Part shown: piece by piece, positions 1,866 through 60,698 of the stretch
Position numbering within the stretch: the stretch's first letter is position 1
How the letters are laid out: each line of letters starts with the position of its first letter
DNA from: Candidatus Magasanikiibacteriota bacterium
GTDB taxonomy: Bacteria > Patescibacteriota > Patescibacteriia > Magasanikbacterales > UBA922
NCBI GenBank assembly: GCA_049287025.1
Contig: JBAQFA010000009.1
Location: 24,802-88,801, forward strand
Length of the DNA stretch: 64,000 nt
Direction of reading: 5' to 3'
Notes under the pieces: generated by a model
Database searches by the model: none
What the model saw: the letters and a program-made list of their open reading frames with translations, nothing else
What the model was told of the DNA's origin: nothing
Position numbers and translations under genes: made by a program

Positions 1866-1940
1866 CTCACGTGCATTTTTTAAAATCCCCTCTGTTGTTT
1901 GTTATATATTTATATATTAAATTGATAATAGTAATAGGTG

Positions 1941-2126: not shown

Positions 2127-2144
2127 CGTATTTGCAATTCTAGT

Positions 2145-3527: not shown

Positions 3528-3828
3528 AATTAGAATGATGCTAATATACGAATTGTACTAATGATACTAATAATAATTTGTATAGCATCGGTATAATTCG
3601 TATGAATTAGTATATTAGAATCGCATTATTTTTTAAAGTGAACCTATTTTAGCACATAATTATTTATTAAAAAATGGCTTAAAAAAGGCAAAAAGTGTAC
3701 ATAATGGGGACAAGCTGTGGATTGTGGGGATAAGTCATATTTGGGTGGTATGAATTGGAAGTATCTTTCTCTTGACAAAATTCCTCAAATCAATTATAAT
3801 CCTCTCACTAATTATAAATAATAATTTT

Positions 3829-4005
3829 ATGCCAAAAAGAACTTACCAACCAAAGAAACGTAAGAGAGCCAAATGTCATGGTTTTTTGTCTCGCATGGAA
3901 ACTAGCAATGGTAGAAATGTATTAAAGAGACGTAGAGACAAAGGCAGAAAAAAATTGACTGTTAGCGATGAGAAAAAAGGCAAGAGAACTAGAAAGACTC
4001 GCTAA
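3829..4005 (+). CDS. rpmH: 50S ribosomal protein L34
   Basis: [23 protein letters not shown]... The track ORF starts earlier at 3772. The ATG at 3829 gives canonical L34. Confidence 0.9.
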
Positions 4006-4029
4006 AATTAGCCAAAAATATTAATAAAG

Positions 4030-4051
4030 GCCTCGTACGTTCGAGGCTTTT
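4030..4051 (+). terminator. Rho-independent terminator after rpmH
   Basis: gcctcg-tacgtt-cgaggc + tttt. Confidence 0.7.
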
Positions 4052-4070
4052 GTGTTATACTTTAACTATA

Positions 4071-4140
4071 CGGATATCCAGATAATCCAGATTTGCAGAT
4101 ACTGCGATCCGTCAATCTGGATTATCAGTATATCTGGATA
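4071..4140. promoter_or_regulatory. Array of four ATCCAGAT half-sites (two direct, two inverted) upstream of rnpA
   Basis: ggATATCCAGATAATCCAGATt ...20 nt... AATCTGGATTATCagtatATCTGGATA; imperfect inverted repeat. Confidence 0.4.
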
Positions 4141-4157
4141 GTAAAATCGCCCAAAAT

Positions 4158-4535
4158 ATGCTAAAACCAAATAACAGACTAACAAAAATGAAAGATTTTG
4201 AGATTCTCTTTAAAGAGGGTAAGTTTGTTAATGGCACTTTATCATCATTAAAGATTTGGAAAATTGAGCCAGAAAAGTATCCTAGACGTAAATACACCCA
4301 AGATGAATTAAGAATCGGTTTTGTGGTTAGTATTAAAATTAGTAAAAAAGCCGTAGACAGAAACAGAATCAAACGGCAAATGAGAGAAGTTGTCCGTCTT
4401 TTAATTAAGGATAATAAGATAAAATCCGGTTTTCATCTGGCTTTTATTACCAAACCAGAGGTCTTGGGTAAAGAATATAAGGAAATTGAAGACGATATTA
4501 TTAAATTATTACGCCGAGCTGATATAATGTTATGA
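4158..4535 (+). CDS. rnpA: Ribonuclease P protein component
   Basis: 125 aa, basic; [16 protein letters not shown] motif; synteny rpmH-rnpA-yidD. Confidence 0.85.
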
Positions 4536-12574: not shown

Positions 12575-13588
12575 GTGAACAACCATAATCCTTGGATGGG
12601 AGGTGAGACAGGGGAAATGGCAAAGGATCTTTCGGAGAGAAAATTTCGAAGCACCGTGCGGTATGTGCGACGTCTATTGGGGGGTGGGACTGGTATTGTG
12701 ACTGCTCAACAGCTTCAGAAGGCTGGAAAACGAGCTCGCGGTCCTTTCTTTGACCCCAGAGACCATGGTCTGGTTCGTCCGTTCTTGGAGCGTGGAGCCG
12801 AAGAAGGACTCTGGGTGCTTGAGAACGGCGGTGGTCGGGCTGTCGTACCTGATGGTGTGTGGGAACAGTGGGATAGTCGTGGCGAGAGACGGCGTGAGGA
12901 ACGTCAGTCACAAGTTACGGCTCAAGCAGGAACCCGGCCAGCTTCAGTGCTGGCATCACTAGAGGAGGTCTCTATGACCGACGGTACGAAGAAGGGGGTG
13001 GGCGTATCCCCGAAAAATCCTATCTGGGTTTGGCTTCGGGCCAAGAAGGGTAGGTTGGGAGAGCTCATCGAGCTGTTCCAGGGGGTCCATGATGGTGCTC
13101 CGGTTCTCGCCAAGAAGGGTGGGGCTTTGAGTTTCCATTTTGCCCGCCCGCACCTAGTTCGGGGCCTGCAGAAGCTCGGGATGGAGCAGATCGACGATGG
13201 GTCAAAGATCCTGGCCACGGTCTTCTCCTACCTCGCCACGCCTGAGCAGGGGGTATTCGAGCGTGTGGGTTCTGGTGGGTACCCCCGCTACAAGCTCGGG
13301 CCGAAAGGGCAGAAGCTCTTGACCGAGGTCAGGAGCAGGGGCTCTGAGCCCATGCCACCGCCCGTTCCGTCCACGTCACCGACCGCTGCCCCCAGCCCGG
13401 GTGACCCGTTCGCCGAGGAGGAGGCCGCTCTCGTGGCCAAGCTCGAGGCGGTCCGTGCCAAACGCCGGCGCTTCATCGTGGTCGAGGACCTCGTGGTCAA
13501 GGCCATGAAGAAGGCCGGCATCGAGGGGACAGAGCAAGTTGAGTTCCTCAAGGCGCTCGTCAAAAAGCTCGGGGGTTCCTCCGAGTAG
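12575..13588 (+). CDS. GC-rich (about 62% GC) hypothetical protein, apparently horizontally acquired (cassette E)
   Basis: 337-codon open frame in 65% GC DNA is unlikely by chance. The sequence is protein-like (…EAALVAKLEAVRAKRRRFIVVEDLVVKAMKKAGIEG…). Likely start is the ATG at 12617 with RBS gggagg. Confidence 0.5.
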   Translation: MNNHNPWMGGETGEMAKDLSERKFRSTVRYVRRLLGGGTGIVTAQQLQKAGKRARGPFFDPRDHGLVRPFLERGAEEGLWVLENGGGRAVVPDGVWEQWDSRGERRREERQSQVTAQAGTRPASVLASLEEVSMTDGTKKGVGVSPKNPIWVWLRAKKGRLGELIELFQGVHDGAPVLAKKGGALSFHFARPHLVRGLQKLGMEQIDDGSKILATVFSYLATPEQGVFERVGSGGYPRYKLGPKGQKLLTEVRSRGSEPMPPPVPSTSPTAAPSPGDPFAEEEAALVAKLEAVRAKRRRFIVVEDLVVKAMKKAGIEGTEQVEFLKALVKKLGGSSE

Positions 13589-13795
13589 TCAAATCTCTAG
13601 GCAGTCTTGACTGCCTACGACATCGTTCTTTCAACCTGTCCCGTTCGGGACACCAAAGTCAGGGAAGTGAGTATCACTCCACATCGGAGCGTACCTTCCC
13701 TGGCGCTCCATCAAAAGAACATCTCTAGTTAGGTGTTTTTTTGTTTAACATTGATTTTACAGATTTTAAAAAAGATTTTATTTTATAAAAATTAT

Positions 13796-14560
13796 TTATT
13801 TCAAACTGTTCCACAACATCTCCCAAACAAGACGTTGGTTATCAGCATTGGCTTGGTCTTCAATAATGACTAGGATCATACTCTCCCAAGAAACAGTCAT
13901 TACTCGATTGCCATAAATAACAGTGTGACTTTTGAATGATTTACCTTCGGGTAAAAATTTTACTTCACGTAATTCTTCTGTGGCACGTCTAGCTTCTAAA
14001 ATACCGGATTTGGATTTTTCCACAATTATTTTTGCTTTAACCCCTAATGAAATTCGTTCGTTGGTTAATTTTTTATACTCTTCTGGAAAAGTTGTTAATA
14101 GTTTTTCTGATGAACCATATACCAAATTTTCTTTTAGATTTACTTTGTGTCTAATCCTGTCTAGATAAGCATTCCATACATTTTTTCTACCCTCAAAATA
14201 TAATACTTTTGGTTTGTTGGCACCTTTGTTTTGTAAAGCCTCAAGTTCTGGTATTAGATCAGCAAAAAGTTGCTCTTTGTAACGAAGTGAATCCAAAAAT
14301 TTTTCTGGTTCCATGGCCACAAAATATCTTTTTCTGCCTTTGTTAACCACATTCATTAAGCCTTTAAGAATTAATTTTTCTATAATGTCGTATGTAGTTA
14401 CTCTATGTATGCCGGCTTTTTGAGCAATTGTCTGGACTGAAGCATGACCAAGCTCTAAGGTGGCTAAGTAAATTTCGGCCTCTTTGGCATCTAGACCAAA
14501 TTGTTGTAATTGATTAGGTAAAATCATAAAATGTTGTAGGAAAAGTTCTACATTTTTCAT
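13796..14560 (-). CDS. TrmB-family wHTH transcriptional regulator (paralog E)
   Basis: N-terminus EAEIYLATLELGHASVQTIAQKAGIHRVTTYDIIEKLILKGL matches the TrmB HTH. Paralogous to ORFs at 28374, 30255, 31929 and 48975. Confidence 0.7.
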   Translation of the reverse strand: MKNVELFLQHFMILPNQLQQFGLDAKEAEIYLATLELGHASVQTIAQKAGIHRVTTYDIIEKLILKGLMNVVNKGRKRYFVAMEPEKFLDSLRYKEQLFADLIPELEALQNKGANKPKVLYFEGRKNVWNAYLDRIRHKVNLKENLVYGSSEKLLTTFPEEYKKLTNERISLGVKAKIIVEKSKSGILEARRATEELREVKFLPEGKSFKSHTVIYGNRVMTVSWESMILVIIEDQANADNQRLVWEMLWNSLK

Positions 14561-27658: not shown

Positions 27659-28177
27659 CAATATGAGGGGGTATCTTTACTTTATTAGGAGCTGTAATTG
27701 TAAAAGACCTTTACTATCCACTAAATCACTTTTTATAGTGATTTTTTATTTAGGTTTATATATATTATTGTACGACGCATATATATAGCTTTAATTAGTG
27801 TAATAAAACTAAAATTACTACTTAACTACCTATTTTATCCCCTATTTGTTCTTTGTGGAACAATTTCAGTGAACAGTGGCCAGTATGCAGTATTCATAAA
27901 ATACTAAATTATAAAAAATACGTTAGTTTTATTGTAGACTGAAAATTTGGTGTTGTTGTTCTTGCGATCTGATTTGTTGGGAAGCATATTTATAATTAAT
28001 ATGTTCTATGTGGAACAATTATTTATGGTTTATACACAGATAGTGGCACTTATACACAAAAATATCCACTTTTGTGGATATTTGTATAGGATATTGTAGA
28101 CAATAATACAAAATACAATATACACGGAGCAAAATACAAAATCTATGTTGTTGTTTGTATATTGTATTTTGTTTTTG

Positions 28178-28248
28178 TGGACCTAGGCAGAATCGAACTG
28201 CCGTCTCAGCAATGCGAATGCTATATATTACCACTATACTATAGGCCC
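28178..28248 (-). tRNA. tRNA-Ala (anticodon CGC)
   Basis: Reverse-strand GGGCCUA acceptor with G3:U70, anticodon loop UUCGCAU, T-arm GGCAGTTCGATTCTGCC. Confidence 0.7.
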
Positions 28249-29515: not shown

Positions 29516-30103
29516 ATGCGTACAATGTTAGTCGCGTTGCTGTCGCTGGTGCTGTTTTCAAGTATTGCTCAGGCCGAAACCTACAACACCAGGTTGCTCC
29601 TGCACGGTCACAAGACCGTCGGTGAGGGATTCGGAGTCGCGGGTTGGGTGATTGCGCCCAACATCACAAGCGTACCGAACAAGTGGGTAACCCTCGTCGG
29701 CCCGTGCTACGATGGACAGGGGTGGGGTGTAGAATTGTTGGCAGGAGCGGTTGTTTCTGGTGGCGAGAGCAAGTTTCTTGTAGATGTCAGAATAACGTTC
29801 ACTCCAAAATTCTTCGGCATCCCCTTGAACACCTGGCACAACTTCCAGTGGATTCGAACCGGAGGCTCTGGCACGGGTTACTGGTATGGACAGGTTGACT
29901 GGGTGTTGCCACTCGGACTTGGACTTCTCGGTACAGAAACCGAGAACACGTTCAACGTGAGTGGCAATGACTGGTCAGTCGCGCCTCACGTCGTGATCTC
30001 TTTCGGTGATCACTTCGCGCTAGTGTTCGCTCCACAAGCTCATTTCAATGCACGTGGCTACACTGGCACGCAAGCGTGGGTTCGTACGGTCGTGAGTCAC
30101 TAG
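29516..30103 (+). CDS. GC-rich secreted hypothetical protein (cassette A)
   Basis: RBS aaggagg; signal peptide MRTMLVALLSLVLFSSIAQA; about 58% GC versus about 33% background. Confidence 0.6.
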   Translation: MRTMLVALLSLVLFSSIAQAETYNTRLLLHGHKTVGEGFGVAGWVIAPNITSVPNKWVTLVGPCYDGQGWGVELLAGAVVSGGESKFLVDVRITFTPKFFGIPLNTWHNFQWIRTGGSGTGYWYGQVDWVLPLGLGLLGTETENTFNVSGNDWSVAPHVVISFGDHFALVFAPQAHFNARGYTGTQAWVRTVVSH

Positions 30104-31049: not shown

Positions 31050-31301
31050 GTTTTTATTCTACTATATATTTGGAAATGTGTCAAATCTATTTAACAGAAA
31101 ATTATTTATATAGCAAAATACTTTATAATTAGCCAAATATTAATAATTAACTAATAAAACAATATTGACAGTTATTGTAAAATGTGGAATAATAAGTAGT
31201 TCTAGAATGAAAATTCTGGAACCAAATTGATTGGGAGTGTCTGAACACTCTGTATATATGGTCTGGCGTTCTTTACACACGTGCTAGTTGGAGGGAACAT
31301 C

Positions 31302-31727
31302 ATGAAAAGGTGCATCAAGGCTCCGGGAATTAACGCTTTCAGTGGCGAGGGTGAAGTGGGGAAGTTAGAAGATGTCCCCGGAAAACAAGGTTGCCTTCCA
31401 TTTGATCCTAGTCCGGCCGTAGGGGGTTGGATGAAGGACGACAATTGTAAAGTGGAGGCACCACCAGAGGGGTGCACGCTCGAAGTGCCCGAAACGATCC
31501 TATGCCCCAATGGAAAAAACATCCCAGCTGGAAAGTACAAGGTGGGAAAACTGCCTGATGACAAGATTCTGCATCGCTATCATGATCACGTTCTGCCCCT
31601 CACCGATGAGAAGGGGGTCACCCGGCATTATTGCATTGAAAGTTCCGGTAGGCATGTCGACTGGTCGGGATGCGTCTGCATCTTGATTCGTGTGGAGACG
31701 CGCGAAGAGCGACTGCTGATTCAGTAG
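31302..31727 (+). CDS. GC-rich Cys-rich small protein (cassette B)
   Basis: RBS ggaggga before ATG 31302 (track start 31281); 10 Cys in 141 aa. Confidence 0.55.
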   Translation: MKRCIKAPGINAFSGEGEVGKLEDVPGKQGCLPFDPSPAVGGWMKDDNCKVEAPPEGCTLEVPETILCPNGKNIPAGKYKVGKLPDDKILHRYHDHVLPLTDEKGVTRHYCIESSGRHVDWSGCVCILIRVETREERLLIQ

Positions 31728-31928: not shown

Positions 31929-32732
31929 TTATTTTTTCTTTTTACTAGTTTTAGCAAGCGGTGTAGCTGTAATCCACGCCAGTTCAAAAATCGCTTTTAA
32001 AATATTAGATAAAGCCGTGCTTTCTATAATTATGCCAATAGGGATTGGTTTCTTGAATAAAGCCATCATTACTTTATTATCATAAATATTAATTTCACCA
32101 CCTAAATCTTTGATAGTTGGTACTTGTTCGGGTTTTATCCAGCGATAATTAATATATTTTTTTGATCCTTGATAATGTTTCATCCAATCTCTTCCTTCGG
32201 GTGTATCTAAAACCAAAACGCGTTCAGAAATTTTTCTTTTACTACGTTCGCGGGTATATTCTTTGCCCCATTTAAAAAGATTAAACTCTGGTGTATACCA
32301 AGCTTGCAAATCCAAGACTGATAAAATTTCTGATTTGGCTTCTAAAGTTTCCCAATAAATATTTTTGGCACCCTCAACACCTTCTTGAAATCTAACGCTG
32401 GGTTTTTCGGCCACGGTATAGAGTAAATAAAAATCTGGCAATTGTGATTCTAATTCTTTTTCTTTTCTTTCCCAAGTATTAATTTTTGATTTTACAAAAT
32501 GTTTTAAATTTTTGGGATCTTTGGCTACAAATTGAATGCGTTTCTTTTGTCCAGAAGAACGATTGACTAGGCCAAACCAACCAAGTTTTTCTAGGGCATG
32601 ATAACAAAGGGTGTGACCAATGCCAGCTTTGCGGGCAATGGCGCTGGCGCCAGAAGGTCCAAGTTGTAAAAGGGCAATATAGACTTTGGCTTCTGTTTCT
32701 TCAAAGCCAATGCTTTTAAGAATTTCTAACAT
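31929..32732 (-). CDS. TrmB-family wHTH transcriptional regulator (paralog C)
   Basis: AKVYIALLQLGPSGASAIARKAGIGHTLCYHALEKLGWFGLV; ends KKKK like paralog B. Confidence 0.75.
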   Translation of the reverse strand: MLEILKSIGFEETEAKVYIALLQLGPSGASAIARKAGIGHTLCYHALEKLGWFGLVNRSSGQKKRIQFVAKDPKNLKHFVKSKINTWERKEKELESQLPDFYLLYTVAEKPSVRFQEGVEGAKNIYWETLEAKSEILSVLDLQAWYTPEFNLFKWGKEYTRERSKRKISERVLVLDTPEGRDWMKHYQGSKKYINYRWIKPEQVPTIKDLGGEINIYDNKVMMALFKKPIPIGIIIESTALSNILKAIFELAWITATPLAKTSKKKK

Positions 32733-32963
32733 AGAATTTTATTTTAGAATTTATTAGATATATTTATTATAACACAAAAATAAATTTATTTCAATATCAA
32801 ATTGAAAATAATTACTAGATTGTAAATTTTTATTTAAAATAAGCCAAAAATGGTTTATTTATTTTAAATTGAGTATTGACATACTCCATAATCTAATGCA
32901 TAATTACTTGTTCTGACGATCGAGGATTGGCCTTGAGAGTTGGACGCTAACTGGGAGGGCATC

Positions 32964-33311
32964 ATGGCCGAAGAGCACGAGGTACGGTGTGATAACTGCG
33001 CCCACCACCACGTAGGAAGCGGGGGTTGTTTCGGCAAAGTAGAGAGCAGGTTCCCCATGTACGATTTTCATAGAGGAGTAAAATACTGCATGTGGGGGGG
33101 GACCCCCAGCCGAATTGTGACCTTTTCTAGATTGAAGGGGTGCCCGCTGGGTGTGGAGTTTGTGCCACTCCGCTGGTGTGGTACCTGTGGCAACTTGGTC
33201 CAAACGGACCAAGGGTGTGCTCACCGGTTGGAGGGTTGCGAGGACCCCAGCTACAGGTGCTGGAAGATTCACCCCGACCTCAAGGAGGGTATGAGACAAC
33301 AGTACCTCTAG
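32964..33311 (+). CDS. GC-rich Cys/His-rich small protein (cassette C1), putative zinc-binding
   Basis: sigma70-like promoter ttgaca-17-cataat at 32876-32904; RBS gggaggg; CDNCAHHH...CxxC motifs. Confidence 0.55.
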   Translation: MAEEHEVRCDNCAHHHVGSGGCFGKVESRFPMYDFHRGVKYCMWGGTPSRIVTFSRLKGCPLGVEFVPLRWCGTCGNLVQTDQGCAHRLEGCEDPSYRCWKIHPDLKEGMRQQYL

Positions 33312-33335
33312 ACTACCCACCTATGGGTTAAACAG

Positions 33336-33444
33336 GCGTAGGCCGACGCGTGAGCTCGGCATTCCATTTTTGTCCAAAATATTATTTTTTGCATAAAGAT
33401 GGAGGCGCTCTTTAAAAACAAACAATCCGCACTGGTGGTGTTGG
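33336..33444 (+). repeat. Cassette 3' core motif (33336-33361) plus about 85-bp conserved leader repeat
   Basis: gcgtaggccgacgcgtgagctcggca + attccatttttgt...ataaagatgg...cgctctttaaaaacaaacaa...cactggtggtgttggttg; near-identical to 34186-34292. Confidence 0.8.
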
Positions 33445-33480
33445 TTGAAGAGATATAGTTCTGACTTAACGGAGGCTAGA

Positions 33481-34149
33481 ATGGGATACGACCCAAACCA
33501 AATGGCCCAAAGGTATTTGAGGGTCGACTGGGCCGACGTGAAGGGCTATGCCGCTTACGCGGTAGAGTCCACGTTCGGGGACCAAGTACCACCACCCATA
33601 AAAAGGAGACTCGAGGTATTGGACGGTATAAGGGACAAGGAAGGTCCCGAAGCCGCCTGTCTCGAGGCAGCAAGGATCGAATGTGAATGCCAAGTCGTTC
33701 AGGAGAAAAGAACTGAACGACGGCAGTGGAGAACGGGAGACGACCCATACAAATATGGGTCTTCGTTCTCTTCGAAGTTTGTCATCATAGATTATAATGG
33801 TGAAAAAAGATTCTACATCGCTCATAATTGGCATATGCAGGCCGTTTTCGTTTTCGCCAAAATTCTGGTGGATAGAAATAAAAAAGTCGATTTTCACGTT
33901 CTGGGTGGGGGGTGGTTCCGTGCTAATCATCCCCTAACTGTTGGCGGTTTTAGCGGTGATTTTAGCTCGTTCAAAATCTCTGACTTGAGTGAGGCGTTGG
34001 GTGGGCTTGAATTCACCGACAAAGATCCCGGTGATTGGCGCACGAATTCCATGCGTGCCACCCATATTGATTGGGCTTTTATCGAAAAAGCCCGTGACTC
34101 CTCTGAGAAATACAGGGAGGTATGGAAACGGATCTTTGAGGAGGAATAA
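33481..34149 (+). CDS. GC-rich hypothetical protein (cassette C2)
   Basis: RBS ggaggct + ATG 33481 (track used TTG 33445); 222 aa; about 50% GC. Confidence 0.55.
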   Translation: MGYDPNQMAQRYLRVDWADVKGYAAYAVESTFGDQVPPPIKRRLEVLDGIRDKEGPEAACLEAARIECECQVVQEKRTERRQWRTGDDPYKYGSSFSSKFVIIDYNGEKRFYIAHNWHMQAVFVFAKILVDRNKKVDFHVLGGGWFRANHPLTVGGFSGDFSSFKISDLSEALGGLEFTDKDPGDWRTNSMRATHIDWAFIEKARDSSEKYREVWKRIFEEE

Positions 34150-34150
34150 T

Positions 34151-34292
34151 AGACGTAATCTGATTTCGTCAATCAGCGTAGGCCGGCGCGTTAGCTCGGC
34201 ATTCCATCTTTGTATAAAAATAATTTTATATAAAGATGGTTGTCGCTCTTTAAAAACAAACAACTAACACTGGTGGTGTTGGTTGGTGATAT
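34151..34292 (+). repeat. Cassette 3' element (core 34186-34211) plus leader repeat, second copy
   Basis: agacgtaatctgatttcgtcaatca gcgtaggccggcgcgttagctcggca + attccatctttgt...cactggtggtgttggttg. Confidence 0.8.
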
Positions 34293-34339
34293 ATAAAAAG
34301 GACTGGTGGCGGACACAACCCTTGGAGAAGGAGTTGAAA

Positions 34340-34759
34340 ATGAGTACTGTCAAGATACTCATCATCGACGACGGTGATGAGAAAGTCGATCGACTGAAAG
34401 GTTATGATCGACTTGGCCACCTCCATGGTGTGGAGGTGGTACGCCGATGGAATTTTAATTCGGCTCTTAAGGAAGGGCCGTACGCGTTTAATGATTTGGA
34501 GCAAACAAAGTTTGACGTGATTATTTTGGACTTTACACTGCCAATGGACAGATTCGGTCATGAGATCTTGGATAAAATTAGACACAGTCCCAGGTTTATT
34601 ATTAACGAAAGAACGGTAGTAATTGGCATTTCCACAGAGTGGAAACGTCTATTACAATATGATTTCGGTTTGAATCTTGCGATCTACAAGGAGGAAACGA
34701 TGGCTGACGAACTGGAAACAGCCATCAAGTCCTTCGTCGCCACTGGCAAAGTCAAATAA
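34340..34759 (+). CDS. Orphan CheY-like response-regulator receiver domain protein (cassette C3)
   Basis: RBS gagaaggag + ATG 34340. KILIIDDGDE...DVIILDFTLP matches the REC-domain acidic pocket and phospho-acceptor Asp. No output domain. Confidence 0.55.
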   Translation: MSTVKILIIDDGDEKVDRLKGYDRLGHLHGVEVVRRWNFNSALKEGPYAFNDLEQTKFDVIILDFTLPMDRFGHEILDKIRHSPRFIINERTVVIGISTEWKRLLQYDFGLNLAIYKEETMADELETAIKSFVATGKVK

Positions 34760-34780: not shown

Positions 34781-34824
34781 CTTGGGATTTGTCACCCAAC
34801 GTAGGCCGGCGCGTGAGCTCGGCA
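34781..34824 (+). repeat. Cassette 3' element, fourth + strand copy
   Basis: agacgaagcttgggatttgtcacccaa cgtaggccggcgcgtgagctcggca, 22 nt after stop of C3. Confidence 0.75.
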
Positions 34825-34959
34825 ATCTCCTTTTTCGCGAAAGAAAGAGCAAAAAAGATCCAGTAAAACTGGGCTTTTTTGTTTGTGGATAAAATAGTTG
34901 ACAATGTGTCTAATATCGTGTATAGTATATAATATATTATAAACTATATACTATAAACT

Positions 34960-35460
34960 ATGAAAACAGACACTACTGACAAAATTTTAGAGTATATTAA
35001 AGAAAAAGGACAGGTTAAACCAAAAGATATAATTAATTATATTGGTTTTGGTGCGCCTGCTGTTTTTAGACAATTAAAAAAACTCATAAGTGAAGGTAAG
35101 ATAGAAAAAAGTGGCACTCCACCAATGGTTTATTATCATTTTCCGATTGACATAAAAGATATAGAGGTTAACGAAAAGAAAATTTTTGATATAAAAATAA
35201 ATTTAAAAGAATTTGGTATTCATCTTTCAGATAGAGAATCAGCCAAAAGATCGTTATTGTTTATTAAGATGAGGTATAAGAAAATTATTGATAATGTCAA
35301 TAAAATTGAAATTAATTTTGAGGATATAAAAGTACTAGGACCTGGCTGGGCTGACGAATTTATTTCTAATTTATCAAAAGAGTATCCAGGAAAGATAGTT
35401 TTGTTGCCTAGTAATAATGCTAGCATAAAAGCTTCGTTACAATTTATTAATATAAAATAA
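34960..35460 (+). CDS. wHTH DNA-binding protein with C-terminal STAS-like (DUF4325-type) domain
   Basis: N-terminus ILEYIKEKGQVKPKDIINYIGFGAPAVFRQLKKLISEGKI; C-terminus KIEINFEDIKVLGPGWADEFISNL. Confidence 0.45.
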   Translation: MKTDTTDKILEYIKEKGQVKPKDIINYIGFGAPAVFRQLKKLISEGKIEKSGTPPMVYYHFPIDIKDIEVNEKKIFDIKINLKEFGIHLSDRESAKRSLLFIKMRYKKIIDNVNKIEINFEDIKVLGPGWADEFISNLSKEYPGKIVLLPSNNASIKASLQFINIK

Positions 35461-35484: not shown

Positions 35485-35799
35485 ATGAGCATTGTTTTTC
35501 TTGATGATGATGTGGAAAATTTTATTTATAGTCTAGAAAATAAAACAAAAGCTAAGGTTTTGCGAACGTTGGATTTGCTAGAAGAGTTTGGTTATAATCT
35601 GGGCATGCCACATACAAAAAAGATTAAAAATAATCTTTTTGAATTGAGAGTATTGGGTAGAAATCAGGTGCGATTATTTTATACATTTTTAAAACCAAAT
35701 ATAATTGTTTTGTGTGGCTTTAGAAAGAAGACTCAGAAAATTCCTAGTCATGAATTGGAGAAAGCCCTGCATAAATTAAAGTTGCTTGACAAGATATAA
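35485..35799 (+). CDS. higB: Type II toxin, RelE/HigB (Gp49-like) family
   Basis: 104 aa; ...ELRVLGRNQVRLFYTFLKPNIIVLCGFRKKTQKIP; immediately upstream of XRE-HTH partner. Confidence 0.6.
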   Translation: MSIVFLDDDVENFIYSLENKTKAKVLRTLDLLEEFGYNLGMPHTKKIKNNLFELRVLGRNQVRLFYTFLKPNIIVLCGFRKKTQKIPSHELEKALHKLKLLDKI

Positions 35800-35822
35800 C
35801 ATATATGTTATATTATAAATGT

Positions 35823-36095
35823 ATGAAAAATTACAATAAAATTAAATCAGAAATATTAAAAGACCCTAAGTTCAAAAAAGTCTATGACGATCTTGAGCCA
35901 GAATTTGAATTGGCTCGGCAAATTATTAAAAAGCGTTTGGAATTAGGTTGGTCTCAGTCAGAATTGGCTAGAAAAATGGGTACCAAGCAGTCGGCTATTG
36001 CCAGGTTGGAGTCTGGCGGATATAATCCAAGTATGGCTTTTTTGCAAAAAACAGTTAAGGCATTAAAGGCCGATTTACAGATAATTATTAGTTAA
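35823..36095 (+). CDS. higA: XRE-family HTH antitoxin (HigA-like)
   Basis: LARQIIKKRLELGWSQSELARKMGTKQSAIARLESG; track start 35805; ATG at 35823 likely. Confidence 0.6.
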   Translation: MKNYNKIKSEILKDPKFKKVYDDLEPEFELARQIIKKRLELGWSQSELARKMGTKQSAIARLESGGYNPSMAFLQKTVKALKADLQIIIS

Positions 36096-47676: not shown

Positions 47677-47702
47677 TGCCGAGCTCACGCGCCGGCCTAC
47701 GC
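47677..47702 (-). repeat. Cassette 3' core motif, reverse-strand copy after cassette D1
   Basis: Revcomp reads ctatggattaaatag GCGTAGGCCGGCGCGTGAGCTCGGCA; the upstream 15 nt also match the copy at 33321. Confidence 0.8.
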
Positions 47703-47784
47703 CTATTTAATCCATAGATGGAGTGCCACTTTTGAATGTGTGTGGCGCACAGTGAAGAGGTGTGGAACAAGCCGGCCATGTTTA

Positions 47785-48228
47785 TCAGATTTTGAATTCC
47801 TGATAAATCCTGGCCAGCACCTTTGCAGCCGTATGAACTCGTTCCAGGATGTTCGTGAGTGCGTCGGAGAATTCGTGCCACTCCCAGACAGTCTCTTCCC
47901 CGTCACTTTTCAGGTTGTAGCTACCCATCATGGCGGCAAACACTTGGTAGGCGTTAACGCTTCGGCCTGTTTTTTCCCCACGCAGTATACTGCCGTGTAT
48001 GTGTTGCGCGTAGTTTTCAAGCCACTCAACCAAATCTTCGTTCCCCTCTATTTTCTGTAGAAGCTGGTCTGCGATTTGATCAACGCTTTCCTTACAACAC
48101 TCTTCATCTGCGTCAAGTCGTAAGTACAGGCAAACGATGGCGATCAGATTGGGTGGAAGGTCATAGCATCCCTCAGGATAAGTCCTGAGCATAGGCTCGC
48201 CTTCTCCCCAGCTAGAAAGGTAGAGCAT
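47785..48228 (-). CDS. GC-rich hypothetical protein (cassette D1)
   Basis: RBS aaggaggtga + ATG at 48228; 147 aa acidic protein; about 55% GC. Confidence 0.55.
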   Translation of the reverse strand: MLYLSSWGEGEPMLRTYPEGCYDLPPNLIAIVCLYLRLDADEECCKESVDQIADQLLQKIEGNEDLVEWLENYAQHIHGSILRGEKTGRSVNAYQVFAAMMGSYNLKSDGEETVWEWHEFSDALTNILERVHTAAKVLARIYQEFKI

Positions 48229-48256
48229 CACTCACCTCCTTGTTTACAAAGAACGT

Positions 48257-48292
48257 TGTCCAACTTTCGAGGTACATCCTCGATTGTCAGAA
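48257..48292 (-). repeat. 36-bp conserved leader repeat upstream of cassette D1 start
   Basis: gtccaactttcgaggtacatcctcgattgtcagaac; second copy at 48681-48716. Confidence 0.7.
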
Positions 48293-48385
48293 CTTCCTCC
48301 ATCTTTATACAAAAAATATTTTGGACAAAGATGGAAGGCCCGGCGCTTTGTTGACGCGCGGCCGGGCGAAGCGTGGCGGAGTGTG

Positions 48386-48652
48386 TTACTCCTTGGGTGT
48401 GGAGAGGTGGAGAAAGTGGCGGATTTTTTGCCAGAAGATTTTGTTGGCTTCTATTCCGGCTTCCTTTTTCGCTCGAGCCTCCCTGATGCCCTTGTTCCTT
48501 TCGAGGCCACACTGGGGGCAGTAGGACATGTGAGGTAAGAGTTCATTTCCACACAGGCATTGTGGAAGAGCAACTCTCTTTACACCACAATATTGACAGA
48601 ACTCTGAGTATCCCACGTGACTACACATCGGGCACAGCCTACTCTCAAGCAT
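48386..48652 (-). CDS. GC-rich double zinc-ribbon small protein (cassette D2)
   Basis: RBS ggaggaagaa + ATG 48652 (track TTG 48685); CPMCSHVGYSEFCQYCG...CPQCG. Confidence 0.55.
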   Translation of the reverse strand: MLESRLCPMCSHVGYSEFCQYCGVKRVALPQCLCGNELLPHMSYCPQCGLERNKGIREARAKKEAGIEANKIFWQKIRHFLHLSTPKE

Positions 48653-48680
48653 TTCTTCCTCCAGAGTGTAAGGAATTTCG

Positions 48681-48716
48681 TCCAACTTTCGAGGCCCATC
48701 CTCGATCGTCAGAACA
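48681..48716 (-). repeat. 36-bp conserved leader repeat upstream of cassette D2 start
   Basis: gtccaactttcgaggcccatcctcgatcgtcagaac. Confidence 0.7.
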
Positions 48717-48974
48717 AGGAATTGTAGATTATTTATGAGTAATTGTCAAGATTAAGTAGTTCAAAAATGTATATAAAATAGGCTAAAATAAGCTAAATAA
48801 TTATTAACACATATAATTTTGTCGGGATGATTTGACATATATTGTTATATATGTTATATTAGTTATGGTTTAAAACATTATTTTGTTTGCTAAAGTGGTT
48901 AATTGTAGGAAAGATTCACCCTTCGGGTATCTTCGACCTCTCCGCCAGTCGGCGGATCGGAATGAACTAAAAAA

Positions 48975-49763
48975 ATGGAAAAAAATAATTTAGAAAAATT
49001 AATAGATTTGGGTCTACAAGAAAATGAAGCCAAAATATATTTGGCTTTGTTGGAATTGGGAAAAGGCAATGTGACCGAAATTAGTCGGCGCGCAGGATTG
49101 AACCGGACGACGGGTTATGATATTTTGGAACGTCTTGGTTTACATGGTATGGTGAACCGCGCCAGAGTGGGTAGTAAAAAAATTATTTATGTGGCCGAAC
49201 CGCCATCACATTTGCGTCAGTACTTGGAAGACAAAAAACGCGCCATGGAAAGACGGATGGAAGAATTAAATGATTTGTTGCCAGATTTGCAATCACTTTA
49301 TAAAACTGATATTAAACCAGTTATAAAATTTGCCGAAGGGAAAAGTGAAATGCAAAAATTGTATTTGAATGTTTTGGATGCGAAGAGTGAAGTTTATTCA
49401 ATTCTTAATTTAAAAGGTTATGCCGAAGTTTTTGATGAACTGGGTGCTTATCAATCCAAAGAACGACATAAAAAAGGCATAAAAGAAAAAGTTTTGGCTA
49501 TAAAAAATGATACCGCTCTGTGGTGGTATAATAAAACTTATAAAAATAAAACTGCCAAGGATAAAAAGTTAACCGAATATCGCTGGCTAGAAGATGCGGA
49601 AAAGTATTCTACCGCCGGAGAAGTAAATATTTTTGATGATAAAGTAATTGGTGTATTATCCAAACCAAGTGAAAATGTGGCATTTGAAATTCAATCACAG
49701 ACATTTGCGGATTTTTTGAAATTAGTTTTTGAAATGGCGTGGAAGAATAGTGAACAAAAATAA
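48975..49763 (+). CDS. TrmB-family wHTH transcriptional regulator (paralog D)
   Basis: NEAKIYLALLELGKGNVTEISRRAGLNRTTGYDILERLGLHGMV; C-terminal domain like paralogs B/C. Confidence 0.75.
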   Translation: MEKNNLEKLIDLGLQENEAKIYLALLELGKGNVTEISRRAGLNRTTGYDILERLGLHGMVNRARVGSKKIIYVAEPPSHLRQYLEDKKRAMERRMEELNDLLPDLQSLYKTDIKPVIKFAEGKSEMQKLYLNVLDAKSEVYSILNLKGYAEVFDELGAYQSKERHKKGIKEKVLAIKNDTALWWYNKTYKNKTAKDKKLTEYRWLEDAEKYSTAGEVNIFDDKVIGVLSKPSENVAFEIQSQTFADFLKLVFEMAWKNSEQK

Positions 49764-53469: not shown

Positions 53470-53586
53470 AAAACTCACCCCCTAACCCCCTCTCTTAAAA
53501 ATAGAGGGGGGAAAAAGACAAAATCAAAAAAATTTGCTATAATGTAAACAATATACAAAATACAAATAATAATATTAAAAAATATT

Positions 53587-55317
53587 TTGTATTTTGTTAC
53601 GTGTATATTGTATTTTGTTTTTATGGACAACATTTTTCTCCAAATTTCAGTCTTAATGGGAATCACAGTTAGTATTGCACTCATAATGCGTCTGCTTCGT
53701 CAGCCATTAATTGTCGCCTATATTATAGCTGGTCTAGTAGCTGGACCATTATTTTTAAATTTGCTTGGCCACAGTGAAGAATTTTTTAATACCTTTGCCA
53801 AGTTTGGGATTGTTCTCTTGTTGTTTTTGGTAGGTTTGAGTTTGAATTTTACTTATATAAAAAGAATGGGAAAGAAAGTTGTAATTGGTGGTGGTGTTCA
53901 ATTTATTTTGACTTCAATCATTGGAGTAGGGGTGGTAATGTTGTTAGGTTTTAGTTTTCAATCATCATTATTTTTATCAATCGCAGTCGCTTTTTCTAGC
54001 ACGATTATTGTAACCAAATTGTTGGCTGACAAAAAAGATTTGGAAACAGTTTATGGTCGCTATACTATTGGCGTGTTGTTGGTCCAAGACATTATTGCGG
54101 TTTTGTTAATGGTATTTTTTAATACTCCTGATGTCCAAGGCGATATTTGGTATAAGACTTTATTTATTATTTTGAGTAAGGGCTTTATTTTGTTGAGCGT
54201 GGTTTATATCATGGCAAAATTTTTATTACCAAAATTAATGGATCGAGTGGCGCGTAATGGTGAGTTATTATTTATTTTTACGATTGCTTGGTGTTTTGGG
54301 GTGGCGAGTATAGTTTATCTGGGTGGATTTAGTATAGAGATTGGAGCGATTATTGCGGGTATTTCTCTTGGCACTTCACCATATCAACCAGAGATTAGCA
54401 GTCGACTTCGTCCTTTGCGAGATTTTTTCTTAGTATTATTTTTTATTGTGCTTGGTAGCGAATTACAATTTAGTGATATTGGTCGGGCAATTTTTCCAGC
54501 GATTATTTTATCAATGTTTATTTTAATTATTGATCCGATTATTTTATTTTTTGCCATGAGGCGGATTAATTATACTAGACGCAATTCTTTTTTGGCCAGT
54601 ATTACGGCGGCTCAGGTAAGTGAGTTTGGATTTATTATAATTTTTACGGCTAGTGGACTAGGTTATTTACAAGGGGTAGAATTGGCAGTATTAACTTTGA
54701 CCGCTCTAATCACGATTATTGTTTCTTCATATCTTATTACTTACAATGAAAAAATTTATCAATGGCTTTTACCATTTTTTATTCTTTTTGGAAAAGATAA
54801 AGCCACTATGCAAGAAGAAGTAAAAGAAACTTACCAAGTATTTGTTTTTGGTTATCATCGGATTGGTTGGAAAGTATGTGAAGCTTTGGCACGTAAAAAA
54901 ATAAAATATGCGGTGATTGATTATAACCCAGACGCGATCACTCGACTCAAACAGCGTAATATTCCAGCTTTTTTTGGTGATGTGGCTGATGTAGAATTTT
55001 TATCAGAATTGCCATTAGAAAAAGCCGATATGATTATTTCTACTATTCCTACAGCCGATGATCAAATGACTATGATAAAACATATAAGAAAGATGACTAA
55101 TAAAACGGTTATTATTGCTAATCTATATTATAATGATCATTTGGATGATTTGTATGAAGCTGGGGCTAATTATGTGATGATGCCCCACCTACTTGGTGGA
55201 CAATGGATAGCCGAAGTTTTGCATAATCATGCTTGGAGCAAATCAACTTTTGAAAAATTAAAAAAAGAACAACGAGAGGAAATGAAGTTGAGATTTACAG
55301 TAGGGGTGCATGAATAG
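53587..55317 (+). CDS. Kef-type cation:proton antiporter (CPA2) with C-terminal TrkA-N/RCK domain
   Basis: 12-13 TM segments followed by YQVFVFGYHRIGWKVCEAL Rossmann. Start may be the internal ATG 53623 (MDNIFLQ). Confidence 0.8.
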   Translation: MYFVTCILYFVFMDNIFLQISVLMGITVSIALIMRLLRQPLIVAYIIAGLVAGPLFLNLLGHSEEFFNTFAKFGIVLLLFLVGLSLNFTYIKRMGKKVVIGGGVQFILTSIIGVGVVMLLGFSFQSSLFLSIAVAFSSTIIVTKLLADKKDLETVYGRYTIGVLLVQDIIAVLLMVFFNTPDVQGDIWYKTLFIILSKGFILLSVVYIMAKFLLPKLMDRVARNGELLFIFTIAWCFGVASIVYLGGFSIEIGAIIAGISLGTSPYQPEISSRLRPLRDFFLVLFFIVLGSELQFSDIGRAIFPAIILSMFILIIDPIILFFAMRRINYTRRNSFLASITAAQVSEFGFIIIFTASGLGYLQGVELAVLTLTALITIIVSSYLITYNEKIYQWLLPFFILFGKDKATMQEEVKETYQVFVFGYHRIGWKVCEALARKKIKYAVIDYNPDAITRLKQRNIPAFFGDVADVEFLSELPLEKADMIISTIPTADDQMTMIKHIRKMTNKTVIIANLYYNDHLDDLYEAGANYVMMPHLLGGQWIAEVLHNHAWSKSTFEKLKKEQREEMKLRFTVGVHE

Positions 55318-58804: not shown

Positions 58805-60442
58805 ATGACAACCACACAAGATTTGTACAAAATGATCGGAACTGCACAACAGCAGGAAGAAGATAAGGATGACGTTTCAAAATATCGATACGTTATTTAT
58901 GCTCGAAAATCTACAGATGATAAAGAAAAACAAATCAGATCATTAGGTGATCAAATTAAAGAATGTAAGGATTATGCTGAAAGAAATGGACTTAGATGTT
59001 TACCGAAACCAATAACGGAGTCAGAGTCTGCCAAGGAACCAGACATAAGGCCAGAGTTTAAGAAATTAATTGATGACATTAAAAAAGCTAAATATGATGG
59101 TATTTTGGCTTGGCATCCAGACCGTTTGGCCAGAAATATGAAGGATGCTGGAGAGATAATAGATCTGTTGGATAAAAAGATAGTGAAAGACCTAAAATTC
59201 GTAACATTTACGTTTGAGAACAATACAATGGGTAAAATGTTGTTAGGGATGGCTTTCGTGCTGTCTAAGCAGTATTCTGACGCTTTAAGTGATAATGTAA
59301 AACGAGGAACAAGTAGAAGTATTGAAGAAGGTAGATGGTTGAACAAAGCTAAACATGGTTATTATAAAGATCGTAATCAAATACTGCATCCAGATGGTAG
59401 ATTTTTTAATCTGATTGAGAATATTTTTAGGATGAGAATAGATAATAAAAGTTTGGATGATATAGCTGATTATTTGAATGAAAATAGATATTGTTGTGCC
59501 CCACCTTCTAAGAATGAAGCTGACCGTAGCCCATTTCAAATGACCAAACAGATCGTCTCTAAAATTGTGAGAGACCCATTTTACACTGGCATTCTTAAGT
59601 ATGGAGAAAACAAGGTTGATTTAACTGAAATTTATGACTTTACTCCTGCTGTAAGTGTGGATGATTTTCTGAAAATAAACAACTTTTCTGATATTGAAAA
59701 AGCTCTAAAATTAACTGGAAAAATTTATAAAGACAACGCAATCAAGGCAGATTTGATGAGAGGAATGATAATTTGTGGTGAATGTGATGGAAGTATGACA
59801 TCTGGAATTACTCCTAAAAAAACAAAAAATGGTAAAACTAATTATTTTTATTACAGATGTGATAACCCTGTTTGTAAAAATAAAGGTAAGTCTATAAGGG
59901 CAAAAGTAATTATTGACTTTGCCTGTCAATATTTGGAAAAAAACAAATTTACCTCTCATTCTATATATGGGCATTATATCCAAGAAATGAAAAAAGTTGT
60001 AATGGAAAAAGAGAGGTCTCTCATACAAAAAATTCGTTCATTGACGGAGACCAGAGTACACAAAAAAAATCAATTTGAAAAGACAAAAAAATCTCTTATA
60101 CAAGAGACTGACGAAGACATCAAGGGTTTTTTTAAGGAAGATTTGAAACAATTAGAAAAGGACATCAATAATTTAGAAACCGAAATAGATGAATTGAAAG
60201 ATGAGAAAGAAAGAAATAATAGCGTCACGCTGACTTACTCAGAATACCTTGAACTGTTCAATAATTTAGCTGAGCGTATTAAAAAAATAGGCGTTATGGA
60301 AGACCTAAATTTTATAATGAAAAAAATCTTCTTGAACTTTACTATAAAAGAGGGAAAAGTGGCTCTATATACACTAAACTCCCCATTCGGGGAGTTCGTG
60401 AAAGACCGTATTGTCTTGACATGTCGGGGTGAAAGGACTTGA
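58805..60442 (+). CDS. Large serine recombinase (serine integrase)
   Basis: N-terminal resolvase domain YVIYARKSTDDKEKQIRSLGDQ (catalytic Ser), recombinase domain, Cys-rich zinc ribbon (CGECDG...CDNPVC), coiled-coil C-terminus. Confidence 0.8.
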   Translation: MTTTQDLYKMIGTAQQQEEDKDDVSKYRYVIYARKSTDDKEKQIRSLGDQIKECKDYAERNGLRCLPKPITESESAKEPDIRPEFKKLIDDIKKAKYDGILAWHPDRLARNMKDAGEIIDLLDKKIVKDLKFVTFTFENNTMGKMLLGMAFVLSKQYSDALSDNVKRGTSRSIEEGRWLNKAKHGYYKDRNQILHPDGRFFNLIENIFRMRIDNKSLDDIADYLNENRYCCAPPSKNEADRSPFQMTKQIVSKIVRDPFYTGILKYGENKVDLTEIYDFTPAVSVDDFLKINNFSDIEKALKLTGKIYKDNAIKADLMRGMIICGECDGSMTSGITPKKTKNGKTNYFYYRCDNPVCKNKGKSIRAKVIIDFACQYLEKNKFTSHSIYGHYIQEMKKVVMEKERSLIQKIRSLTETRVHKKNQFEKTKKSLIQETDEDIKGFFKEDLKQLEKDINNLETEIDELKDEKERNNSVTLTYSEYLELFNNLAERIKKIGVMEDLNFIMKKIFLNFTIKEGKVALYTLNSPFGEFVKDRIVLTCRGERT

Positions 60443-60497
60443 ACCTTCGGCCTCCTGGTCCCAAACCAGGCGCTCTAGCCAACTGAGCTACACCCCG
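60424..60497 (-). tRNA. tRNA-Pro (anticodon UGG)
   Basis: CGGGGUG acceptor, anticodon loop UUUGGGA, T-arm GAAGGTTCAAGTCCTTT. Confidence 0.8.
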
Positions 60498-60541
60498 TTA
60501 AAGTTATAAAGTTGAAAGTTTTAAAGTTCAAAAAAATAACT

Positions 60542-60617
60542 TGGTGCCGAGGGCCAGGATCGAACTGGCGACACGTGGATTTTCAGTCCACTGCTCTACC
60601 ACTGAGCTACCTCGGCT
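60542..60617 (-). tRNA. tRNA-Phe (anticodon GAA), CCA encoded
   Basis: GCCGAGGTAGCTCAGTGGTAGAGC...CTGAAAA loop...GTTCGATCC...CACCA. Confidence 0.85.
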
Positions 60618-60624
60618 TGTTTTG

Positions 60625-60698
60625 TGGACCTGAGGAGATTCGAACTCCTGACCCCCTGCTTGCAAAGCAGGTGCTCTAGCCAGCTGAGCTACAGGCCC
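60625..60698 (-). tRNA. tRNA-Ala (anticodon UGC)
   Basis: GGGCCUG acceptor with G3:U70, anticodon loop UUUGCAA, T-arm GGAGTTCGAATCTCC. Confidence 0.85.

Follow-up and report, generated by a model that had tools for sequence, protein, structure and literature searches.

The chromosome of a Candidatus Magasanikiibacteriota bacterium carries repeated, AT-rich segments in front of the GC-rich open reading frames (ORFs) of small operons, and these raise the question of whether they act as promoters of the genes that follow, as operators, as junctions between exchanged cassettes or as signals in the RNA. We studied them in a window of 64,000 nt (GenBank assembly GCA_049287025.1, contig JBAQFA010000009.1, positions 24,802 to 88,801), where a first-pass annotation had described those at 33362-34339 as conserved promoter and leader repeats of cassette-like genes. 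The reading that we favour, with a probability of about one half, is that the repeats are portable hairpin modules of the sense strand, located in the untranslated parts of GC-rich ‘cargo’ operons and working in cis as elements of the messenger RNA (mRNA). They are probably not gene-specific promoters.

GC-rich cargo operons beside TrmB-like genes

The window is chromosomal DNA of a metagenome-assembled genome from the candidate phyla radiation (CPR/Patescibacteria), with an overall GC content of 36% and with housekeeping genes identified by Pfam scans (dnaA, dnaN, rnpA, recA, ftsK, polA and PBP1A) spread over it. It contains five modules with a TrmB-like gene. In four of them this gene has a host-like composition (GC 0.34-0.35, GC at third codon positions (GC3) 0.25-0.29) and is divergent from a GC-rich operon of small ORFs without assigned function (GC 0.43-0.56, GC3 0.49-0.69). 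Eight cargo ORFs, at 12575-13588, 29516-30103, 31281-31727, 32964-34759 and 47785-48685, have GC3 values of 0.49-0.68, versus 0.20-0.30 in host genes. The high-GC tract extends from the predicted transcription start to a 26-nt GC-rich hairpin that we call the core. The fifth module, A (12575-14560), consists of a 337-aa cargo ORF with 60% GC, convergent with its TrmB-like gene, and has neither the core nor the 36-nt repeat (36-mer) described below. The repeats studied here are carried by module C on the + strand (TrmB_C at 31929-32732, - strand; ORFs C1, C2 and C3 starting at 32964, 33481 and 34340) and by module D on the - strand (TrmB_D at 48975-49763, + strand; ORFs D1, of 99 aa, and D2, of 148 aa, starting at 48685 and 48231).

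The cargo itself matched no family above threshold in Pfam, PHROGs or PADLOC, and its only two sub-threshold signals were a receiver domain in C3, below the Pfam cut-off, and a zinc ribbon in D1. A word-indexed search of 5.8 billion proteins with C2 returned only C2 itself. One could argue that such abrupt changes in composition come from a chimeric assembly; this is unlikely, because the same GC-rich/AT-rich junctions recur in independent NCBI, Joint Genome Institute (JGI), ENA and Logan assemblies.

The repeated segments and their boundaries

When the segments at 33362-33457 and 34202-34295 were aligned, they matched in register at 79 of 97 positions (81%), and at 103 of 123 (84%) with the core included (33336-33457 against 34176-34295). 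The alignment score of 58 is about 13 standard deviations above that of 1000 shuffles (-12 ± 5.5, maximum 6) and compares with -14 ± 5.8 (maximum 7) for 659 composition-matched segments of the window. The repetition seen in the first pass is therefore real, and only its registration was wrong: the second copy begins at 34202 and not 10 nt further right, at 34212, so a global alignment of 33362-33444 with 34212-34292 reaches only 65% identity. The first leader ends 13 nt ahead of a Shine-Dalgarno (SD) sequence, GGAGG (33471-33475), which is followed by the ATG at 33481, and the second ends about 29 nt ahead of GGAGAAGGAG (34324-34333), followed by the ATG at 34340. Neither of them is part of a longer ORF, since the only starts further upstream are a TTG at 33445 and a TTG at 34283, both without a ribosome-binding site; the public annotation of C2 (222 aa) likewise begins at the ATG at 33481. 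The segments are thus conserved 5' or intercistronic leaders of GC-rich ORFs, as had been supposed, although the repeat of about 85 bp is not one unit: it is made of two independent modules, an AU-rich hairpin (AU hairpin) and a 5' leader.

The 36-bp repeat was also confirmed. It had been counted twice, at positions in module D that were each one base off; exact pattern matches place these copies at 48258-48293 and 48680-48715, and add an overlooked third copy at the head of module C (32910-32945, + strand), where chance would give none. Altogether, the window holds three AU hairpins, five cores and three 36-mers, every one of them within cargo operons.

A stable hairpin at the predicted 5' end of cargo transcripts

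In promoter scans every cargo operon started with an 11/12 match to TTGACA-N16/17-TAnAAT, and the promoters of the TrmB genes were comparably strong (10-12/12). The promoters of cargo operons C and D are TTGACA-17-CATAAT (32876-32904, +) and TTGACA-17-TACAAT (48721-48749, -), respectively, both 11/12. Two of the three 36-mers in the window, at 32910-32945 in operon C and at 48680-48715 in operon D, start 5-6 nt past the -10 hexamer of such a sigma-70-type promoter, which is the predicted +1, and the orthologous copies in related loci (L001/L004, L002/L003, L021 and L022) have the same start relative to the -10. The copy of operon D is identical at 36 of 36 positions in UBA11710, and in L022 it is followed directly by GCTCTTTAAAAA and then an SD.

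Folded as RNA, the 36-mer gives a two-step stem-loop, in which an outer UCUGAC/GUUGGA stem surrounds an inner UCGAGG-N5-CCUCGA. All 12 pairs are kept in the seven available copies (100% paired), with three out of three stem substitutions preserving the pairing, and the variable columns fall on unpaired positions (5/9) rather than paired ones (3/24; Fisher p = 0.02). Its covariance model found no antisense match at all.

A hairpin at the predicted +1 is general for cargo promoters, and not for TrmB or other host promoters. We took the leader segment from 5 nt after the -10 hexamer and calculated the folding free energy (dG) over 46 nt. Ten of the 11 cargo promoters, which include five unrelated hairpin families, showed a stable hairpin within 0-3 nt of the start of the segment. 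The median dG was -15.4 kcal/mol (median z -2.7) for these 11 promoters, versus -3.6 (z -0.06) for 13 TrmB promoters and, for 16 further host promoters, -4.4 (z -0.6); Mann-Whitney tests gave p = 1e-5 (dG) and 3e-4 (z). Besides, many cargo leaders have a GTTCTTT(A/G)(C/T)A motif 10-25 nt ahead of the SD (48236-48250 on the - strand and 31270-31280 in the window, and in the leaders of L004, L022 and L031), and most 5' hairpins begin with GTTCT.

AU hairpins mark the junctions between cistrons

The junctions follow a fixed order: a GC hairpin (the core or an alternative), the AU hairpin, and then either a 36-mer or an A-rich tract with a G/U-rich hairpin, hp3. Their folding z values range from -2.9 to -5.4 in the window and from -2.4 to -4.6 in the related loci. 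Behind C1 come the 3'-untranslated region (UTR) module Y (CCACCTATGGGTTAAACAG, 33317-33335), the core that ends this cassette (33336-33361), the AU hairpin (33362-33402), which is the first part of the repeat of about 85 bp, and the type 1 leader (33404-33457), formed by CGCTCTTTAAAAACAAACAA and hp3 (33423-33447). The octamer GTTCTGAC (33459-33466), equal to the first 8 nt of the 36-mer, stands just ahead of the SD of C2. C2 itself (33481-34149, GC3 0.52) is followed by the 3'-UTR module X (a GACGTAATCTGATTTCGTCAATCA hairpin, 34152-34175), a core (34176-34201), the AU hairpin (34202-34239) and the type 2 leader (34242-34295, A-rich tract and hp3 at 34261-34285), and then by C3 (34340-34759, 139 aa). 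On the - strand, in module D, an alternative GC hairpin (48337-48367) replaces the core after D1; it is followed by the AU hairpin (48299-48336) and, 5 nt past it, by the internal 36-mer (48258-48293) that precedes D2. The internal cores and AU hairpins gave no terminator-like call in an intrinsic-terminator test, and the operons have separate canonical terminators at their ends: operon C finishes (34799-34873) with a terminal core, the c' hairpin (34825-34850) and the intrinsic terminator (34859-34873, with equivalents elsewhere), and operon D with a core (47677-47702) and then a host terminator.

The AU hairpin measures 38-41 nt (CCAUCUUUGU...AUAAAGAUGG) and has 17-20 bp including its extension. 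It was present at six of the seven long cistron junctions seen, always directly behind the GC hairpin, and a covariance-model search of 196 kb detected none outside such junctions, be it ahead of a first cistron, behind a last one or anywhere else. In its six copies the 18 pairs are 92.6% paired, three of them having changed on both sides, versus 39-61% in slid controls; the four copies of hp3 are 97.7% paired. The covariance models scored 61-75 bits on the sense strand versus at most 40 bits on the antisense strand, the stems holding invariant G-U pairs, and their searches gave no copies beyond the training set in the 196 kb. According to these comparisons, all three predicted hairpins (36-mer, AU hairpin and hp3) are strand-specific, with the predicted pairing kept across related Magasanikbacteria loci. 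In Rfam only tRNAs reached gathering scores, and the E-value mode gave only terminator-like chance matches outside the elements; even on a conservative reading, these elements are new structured RNA motifs absent from Rfam.

The leader is an element of about 55 nt, with an unstructured A-rich tract ahead of hp3. Over 51 nt, its type 2 form matches an intercistronic leader of L021 at 94% identity; the L021 copy has neither core nor AU hairpin ahead of it, and the ORF behind it is unrelated. The closest relative of type 1 is a primary 5' UTR of the same L021 module. A recent duplication in situ was rejected as the origin of the two window leaders, each subtype being nearer to its L021 copy (91-94%) than to the other window copy (81-87%).

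The modules are conserved beside unrelated cargo

Related loci were found through exact-core scans and TrmB homolog look-ups in independent assemblies. They come from UBA11710 (L001, L004, L005, L022 and L023), from ENA and Logan contigs, and from JGI lake or groundwater metagenomes (L002, L003, L017, L019 and L021); the exact-core scans of genomes and of metagenomes gave one locus each. Synteny with the window covers two blocks, the first with tRNAs, three TrmB modules and RmuC, and the second with PBP1A, module D, an LTD/PKD protein and an Na/H exchanger. Over all loci we counted seven 36-mers, six AU hairpins and four leaders, and the core, X, Y and B2-box elements and the c' hairpin also recur. 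The modules are 89-100% identical between loci (84-89% for the Y element), versus 39-57% for the adjacent UTR spacers; outside the modules, homologous cargo coding sequence retains 60-72% identity, and replaced cargo only 22-33%.

Module D illustrates this best. The TrmB_D orthologs of the window and of L022 (UBA11710) share 97% of their amino acids and 91% of their nucleotides, and the gene order is kept on both flanks (PBP1A and the LTD/PKD protein). The operon in between (window 47677-48715, L022 2898-4770) has two ORFs of 99 and 148 aa in the former versus three unrelated ones of 212, about 63 and 225 aa in the latter: the 36-mer is identical at 36/36 positions and the core at 25/26, while the sequence between them shows 22% identity. 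On alignment, this looks like the replacement of a cassette between 36-mer and core. In slot C, four or five different cargo sets lie between the same 36-mer and Y plus core. Identity drops sharply right behind ...GTTGGAC and right ahead of the core. C1 and its homolog in L004 share 48% amino acid identity, while their 36-mers are 94% identical. The only other contig with an identical TrmB_C (L030) is 100% identical over 6 kb, and is therefore uninformative on cassette polymorphism at the strain level.

A further case comes from L008 (1619-2296), where a Cys-rich ORF distantly related to C1 adjoins a receiver-like ORF 31% identical to C3, with a 30-nt spacer. In the window (32964-34759) the counterparts of this pair are separated by the orphan C2 and two junction modules, which suggests an insertion of C2 with its junction modules, with a period of 840 bp.

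The same modules thus precede unrelated ORFs, so they are not specific to a cargo family, and the idea of family-specific leaders is not supported: the 36-mer is carried by the unrelated C1, D1 and D2, C2 and C3 have the same leader, and in other genomes the same leader subtypes head different ORFs.

We also looked for signs of a phage vector for the cassettes, and rejected it. The core and the AU-hairpin pattern had no matches in viral contigs; 18-mers of the 36-mer and of hp3 had six each, all of them by chance, in unrelated coding DNA without flanking similarity. In L019, a different 3' repeat of about 90 nt (CCCCCGYCCAAATCGCGCAATTCTGCGCGCAGCGGGCGATGCTCTTTCCTTATCCGG...; 3040-3165 and 4120-4245, - strand) was seen behind two GC-rich cassettes, each with its own TTGACA promoter and terminator and with no TrmB gene adjacent.

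A model of cis-acting RNA elements

What we observed directly are the repeats, where they lie with respect to ORFs and to predicted promoters and terminators, their strand-specific pairing, their portability and their conservation beside unrelated cargo. We place the function in the RNA because of the position at the predicted +1, the G-U pairs on the sense strand and the generality of the 5' hairpins. From this we infer the following scheme of RNA processing and stabilisation. One TrmB-controlled promoter would give a polycistronic RNA, whose 5'-terminal stem-loop, the 36-mer or an analogue, would protect the 5' end of the cargo mRNA. At each junction, the GC hairpin would protect the 3' end of the upstream cistron; the AU hairpin, confined to junctions and long enough for a double-strand-specific RNase, may be for these reasons a processing site of the RNase III type or an insulating one between cistrons; and the leader would supply a standard translation-initiation context to the next foreign ORF. 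Of the functions proposed in the first pass, the shared transcript-processing signal is the one that fits this anatomy best. The modules are the only sequence common to otherwise unrelated cassettes, and for this reason they probably also supply homology where cassettes are replaced and stacked.

Several observations weigh against this proposal. The independent copies are few, four to seven per module, and some of them are orthologous; the covariation consists mostly of one-sided wobble changes and did not beat a column-shuffle control. With so few sequences, the pairing is consistent with structure, short of proof. Transcription start sites were taken from promoter geometry only, and weak promoter-like matches straddle the core and the AU hairpin in two copies. 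The modules are not obligatory either, since the junction of module 3 in L021 has a leader without an AU hairpin and several cistron pairs are tightly joined without any module. Regarding the 36-mer, its stems and the GGAU of its loop are near-invariant in primary sequence, which suggests that a specific factor recognises them and that they are more than a generic hairpin. Its inner palindrome (6-N5-6) has the geometry of known archaeal TrmB sites, so it may also have a role at the level of the DNA.

Alternative explanations

Among the alternatives, the one that survives best, although we regard it as rather doubtful, places the function in the DNA. Core, AU hairpin and 36-mer would be recombination sites for a site-specific enzyme or short homologies for RecA, and the repeated ‘leader’ a scar or a site remade at each junction; such a role is compatible with one in the RNA. 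It would account for the cargo swap between conserved 36-mer and core in L022, for the different cargo sets of slot C, for the sharp loss of identity at the module borders and for the foreign GC3 of the cargo, and RecA is encoded in the window. Moreover, the long junctions all read ...GGCA (or GGCC) and then YTCCATCTTTGT, a recurring GGCA followed by YTCCAT, and the terminal junctions, read by eye, continue from GGCA to TTCTCC or TCTCGA. A circular intermediate would therefore regenerate the same junction. On the other side, there is no recombinase at or near any module among the ORFs scanned, and no attC-type core sites. The modules recombine independently of each other, with either X or Y present, with the core, its alternative or a B2 box, and with differing leaders, a shuffling that looks like mosaic homologous exchange rather than one defined site. 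Sense-strand structures with G-U pairs are predicted by a role in RNA and not by double-stranded recombination sites. Finally, the cargo of C1 and L004 diverged by point mutation while the 36-mer remained 94% identical, which requires selection on the 36-mer itself. The only recombinase found in the 64 kb, a large one of the serine type with Resolvase, Recombinase and Zn-ribbon domains (58805-60442), lies about 10 kb from module D; it abuts a tRNA-Pro/Phe/Ala cluster (60423-60698), and this may be the edge of an integrated element.

It is unlikely that the cassettes are independently regulated transcription units, with a promoter of its own, an operator for the adjacent TrmB paralog, or both, in every leader. 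This is close to what the first-pass annotation had proposed, and weak matches are indeed co-located with the repeats (TCGGCA-18-TATTAT at 33356-33385 and TCGGCA-17-AATAAT at 34196-34224). There are also inverted repeats in the AU hairpin and in the 36-mer, whose TCGAGG-N5-CCTCGA has the 6-N5-6 geometry of the Thermococcales TrmB/Tgr motif, and the downstream GC-rich cassettes of L019 do have their own TTGACA promoters. However, the internal leaders reach at best 9/12 (TCGGCA-N17/18-TATTAT or AATAAT), versus 11/12 at the starts of the cargo operons and 10-12/12 over all module-start promoters, and we judged such 9/12 matches to be as frequent as expected in AT-rich DNA (42 sites in the region versus 21.5 from shuffles). 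The would-be -35 is lost in the copies of module D and L022 (CGGGCC and CGGGCA). The TTGTCC and TATAAA hexamers within the AU hairpin shift in spacing between copies (13-16 nt) and its loop goes from 4 to about 15 nt; neither a fixed promoter nor a dimer operator would tolerate such variation.

Control by the adjacent TrmB through the leader fares no better. The 36-mer is common to modules whose TrmB paralogs are less than about 42% identical and have a different recognition helix; TrmB_B2 is closer to TrmB_C (about 60%), yet its module has a different leader; and one copy of the 36-mer is about 420 nt from any promoter. A better candidate lies upstream, between the divergent promoters. In C-type modules a motif resembling ATAAGCC-N7-GCTTAAAT is conserved some 45 nt ahead of the cargo -35, and in D-type modules TTAGCT-type repeats, TTAGCTTATTTTAGC(C/T), occupy the same place (32820-32850 and 48780-48810 in the window, and the intergenic regions of L003, L004, L021, L022, L025 and L027). 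This motif is more plausibly the TrmB operator than the 36-mer is.

Very unlikely are selfish or neutral miniature palindromic repeats, similar to those known as repetitive extragenic palindromes (REP) or bacterial interspersed mosaic elements (BIME), enterobacterial repetitive intergenic consensus (ERIC) sequences or Correia elements, that accumulate without serving the operons. Our elements do share with them that they are short mosaic palindromes, repeated within and between genomes in extragenic transcribed DNA. But they occur in cargo operons only, with 6/6 AU hairpins at cistron junctions and none elsewhere in the 196 kb; their position is fixed relative to the +1, the stop codon and the SD; and their conservation is far above that of the surrounding sequence. 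No target-site duplications were seen by eye, and no REP-associated tyrosine transposase (RAYT) or IS200-type transposase was found among the ORFs scanned, a subset of those in the window.

Most improbable of all is attenuation by a leader peptide, in which the translation of about 18-28 codons encoded in the leader would control the ORF behind it. All four leader copies do keep a short frame open (...LFKNKQ..LVVLVE(E/D)I; 33399-33458 and 34240-34296 in the window, and around 950-885 and 1360-1275 on the - strand of L021), although they differ by an indel, and in L021 its ATG abuts the upstream stop (TAGATG) after AGGAAG. But three of the four putative starts lack an SD, two are TTG and one is located in the AU hairpin, on its 3' arm. 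The 15 nt for LVVLV are invariant including third codon positions while changes elsewhere are non-synonymous, which points to constraint at the nucleotide level. The frame is probably a by-product of the conserved hairpin.

Comparison with known systems

Integron cassettes are similar in several respects: they form arrays of mostly single, compositionally foreign and often orphan ORFs, each ending in a conserved imperfect hairpin, and their content differs between close relatives. Integron cassettes are also promoterless and expressed from a common upstream promoter; a comparable arrangement may hold here, where only the module-start promoters reach 11/12 and internal junctions have 9/12 at most. 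Nevertheless, an integron was rejected, in agreement with the earlier view that these are not classical cassettes. Pfam scans of 39 window ORFs of at least 110 aa (most of those of that size; some smaller ORFs were left unscanned) gave no tyrosine recombinase and hence no IntI, and the gene tables of the related loci listed none either, the neighbours being TrmB-like genes, RmuC, PBP1A and tRNAs. When six junctions were scanned with regular expressions, neither strand had an RYYYAAC/GTTRRRY pair in the right order 40-150 nt apart, that is, no attC core sites. No attI was found either. Unlike integrons, the arrays described here are several and small, lie among housekeeping genes, are each paired with a TrmB-like gene, and have conserved modules on the 5' side as well as on the 3' side.

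The REP/BIME, ERIC or intergenic repeat unit (IRU), and Correia (Correia repeat enclosed element, CREE) families resemble our modules in being short, conserved, imperfect and mosaic palindromes located in 3' UTRs and intercistronic spacers, in transcribed extragenic DNA. REP hairpins stabilise the mRNA that precedes them, and RNase III cleaves Correia hairpins once these are transcribed. Unlike those families, the present elements have a low copy number, belong to one class of operon and keep their position relative to +1, stop or SD, and their sequences are unrelated. The many dispersed copies and the RAYT that accompany REP/BIME were not found, with no Y1 transposase among the ORFs scanned. 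Terminal duplications like those of miniature inverted-repeat transposable elements or Correia elements were not seen: the flanks read ...GGCA before the hairpin and GATGG, then RGG, after it, with no duplicated bases by eye (no formal scan was made).

A 5'-terminal stem-loop blocks 5'-end-dependent attack by RNase E or J, and the predicted 36-mer hairpin would sit near the 5' end as do the stabilisers of Escherichia coli ompA and of Bacillus subtilis ermC and aprE. It differs from these leaders in that its primary sequence is conserved across paralogous operons and genomes, with one copy being internal. The AU hairpins, in turn, recall the RNase III sites of T7 early mRNA (e.g. R1.1), which are hairpins of about 17-20 bp with a small internal loop between cistrons, flanked by structures that would sit at the new 3' and 5' ends; the setting here is a CPR chromosome, the stem is nearly pure A-U and cleavage is only proposed. 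Mosaic extragenic palindromes, 5' stem-loop stabilisers and T7-type intercistronic RNase III sites are the closest analogues in behaviour, and no sequence is shared between our elements and any of them.

The glycolytic motif of TrmB/Tgr in Thermococcales is TATCAC-N5-GTGATA. The inner TCGAGG-N5-CCTCGA of the 36-mer has the same 6-N5-6 arrangement and likewise lies downstream of a promoter beside a TrmB-family gene. It differs from those operators in its sequence, in being common to divergent paralogs with one copy far from a promoter, and in its outer stem, which pairs only as RNA through G-U pairs.

Other features of the window

The genes dnaN, dnaA and rnpA lie at 723-4535, together with a 40-nt inverted repeat at 4061-4146, which indicates that the origin region of the chromosome is within the window. 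The interval from module C to rmuC holds an HTH-DUF4325 gene (34960-35460) and a Gp49 (HigB-like) gene with a predicted HTH gene (35485-36095), none of which is present at the corresponding site of L002/L003. An AT-rich palindromic element of about 75 nt (AATACAAAATACAATATACAC...) has two copies with about 80% identity (28105-28182 and 53566-53628); one adjoins tRNA-Ala, and the predicted TTG start of the Na/H exchanger gene (53587) falls within the second.

Implications for gene capture in CPR bacteria

A GC-enriched divergent neighbour was present beside 16 of the 20 TrmB-like genes sampled. This pairing appears to be an undescribed pattern and a more interesting lead than the repeats themselves; the literature that we searched gave no link between TrmB, Patescibacteria or Magasanikbacteria and such cassettes. 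As a tentative extension, Magasanikbacteria and perhaps many CPR lineages might possess a cassette system without an integrase, in which a TrmB-like gene and a divergent consensus promoter form an ‘expression slot’. Orphan ORFs of foreign composition and rapid turnover would possibly be plugged in, stacked and swapped between the 5' stem-loop and the 3' core, with AU hairpins as joints. The same modules could then serve, again tentatively, as recombination handles in the DNA and as processing and stability signals in the RNA.

CPR bacteria have tiny genomes, are not cultivable alone and are genetically largely ‘dark’. The loci described here point to a defined and repeated architecture by which a CPR genome hosts and expresses foreign-looking orphan genes, built from a TrmB-like regulator, a consensus promoter and standard hairpins at the 5' end, the junctions and the 3' end. 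If our reading is true, the sequences of the modules would allow variable cargo genes to be located across CPR metagenomes, the post-transcriptional processing of operons would become directly testable in a lineage with uncharacterised mRNA decay, and these bacteria would have a candidate route of gene capture that needs no integron integrase.

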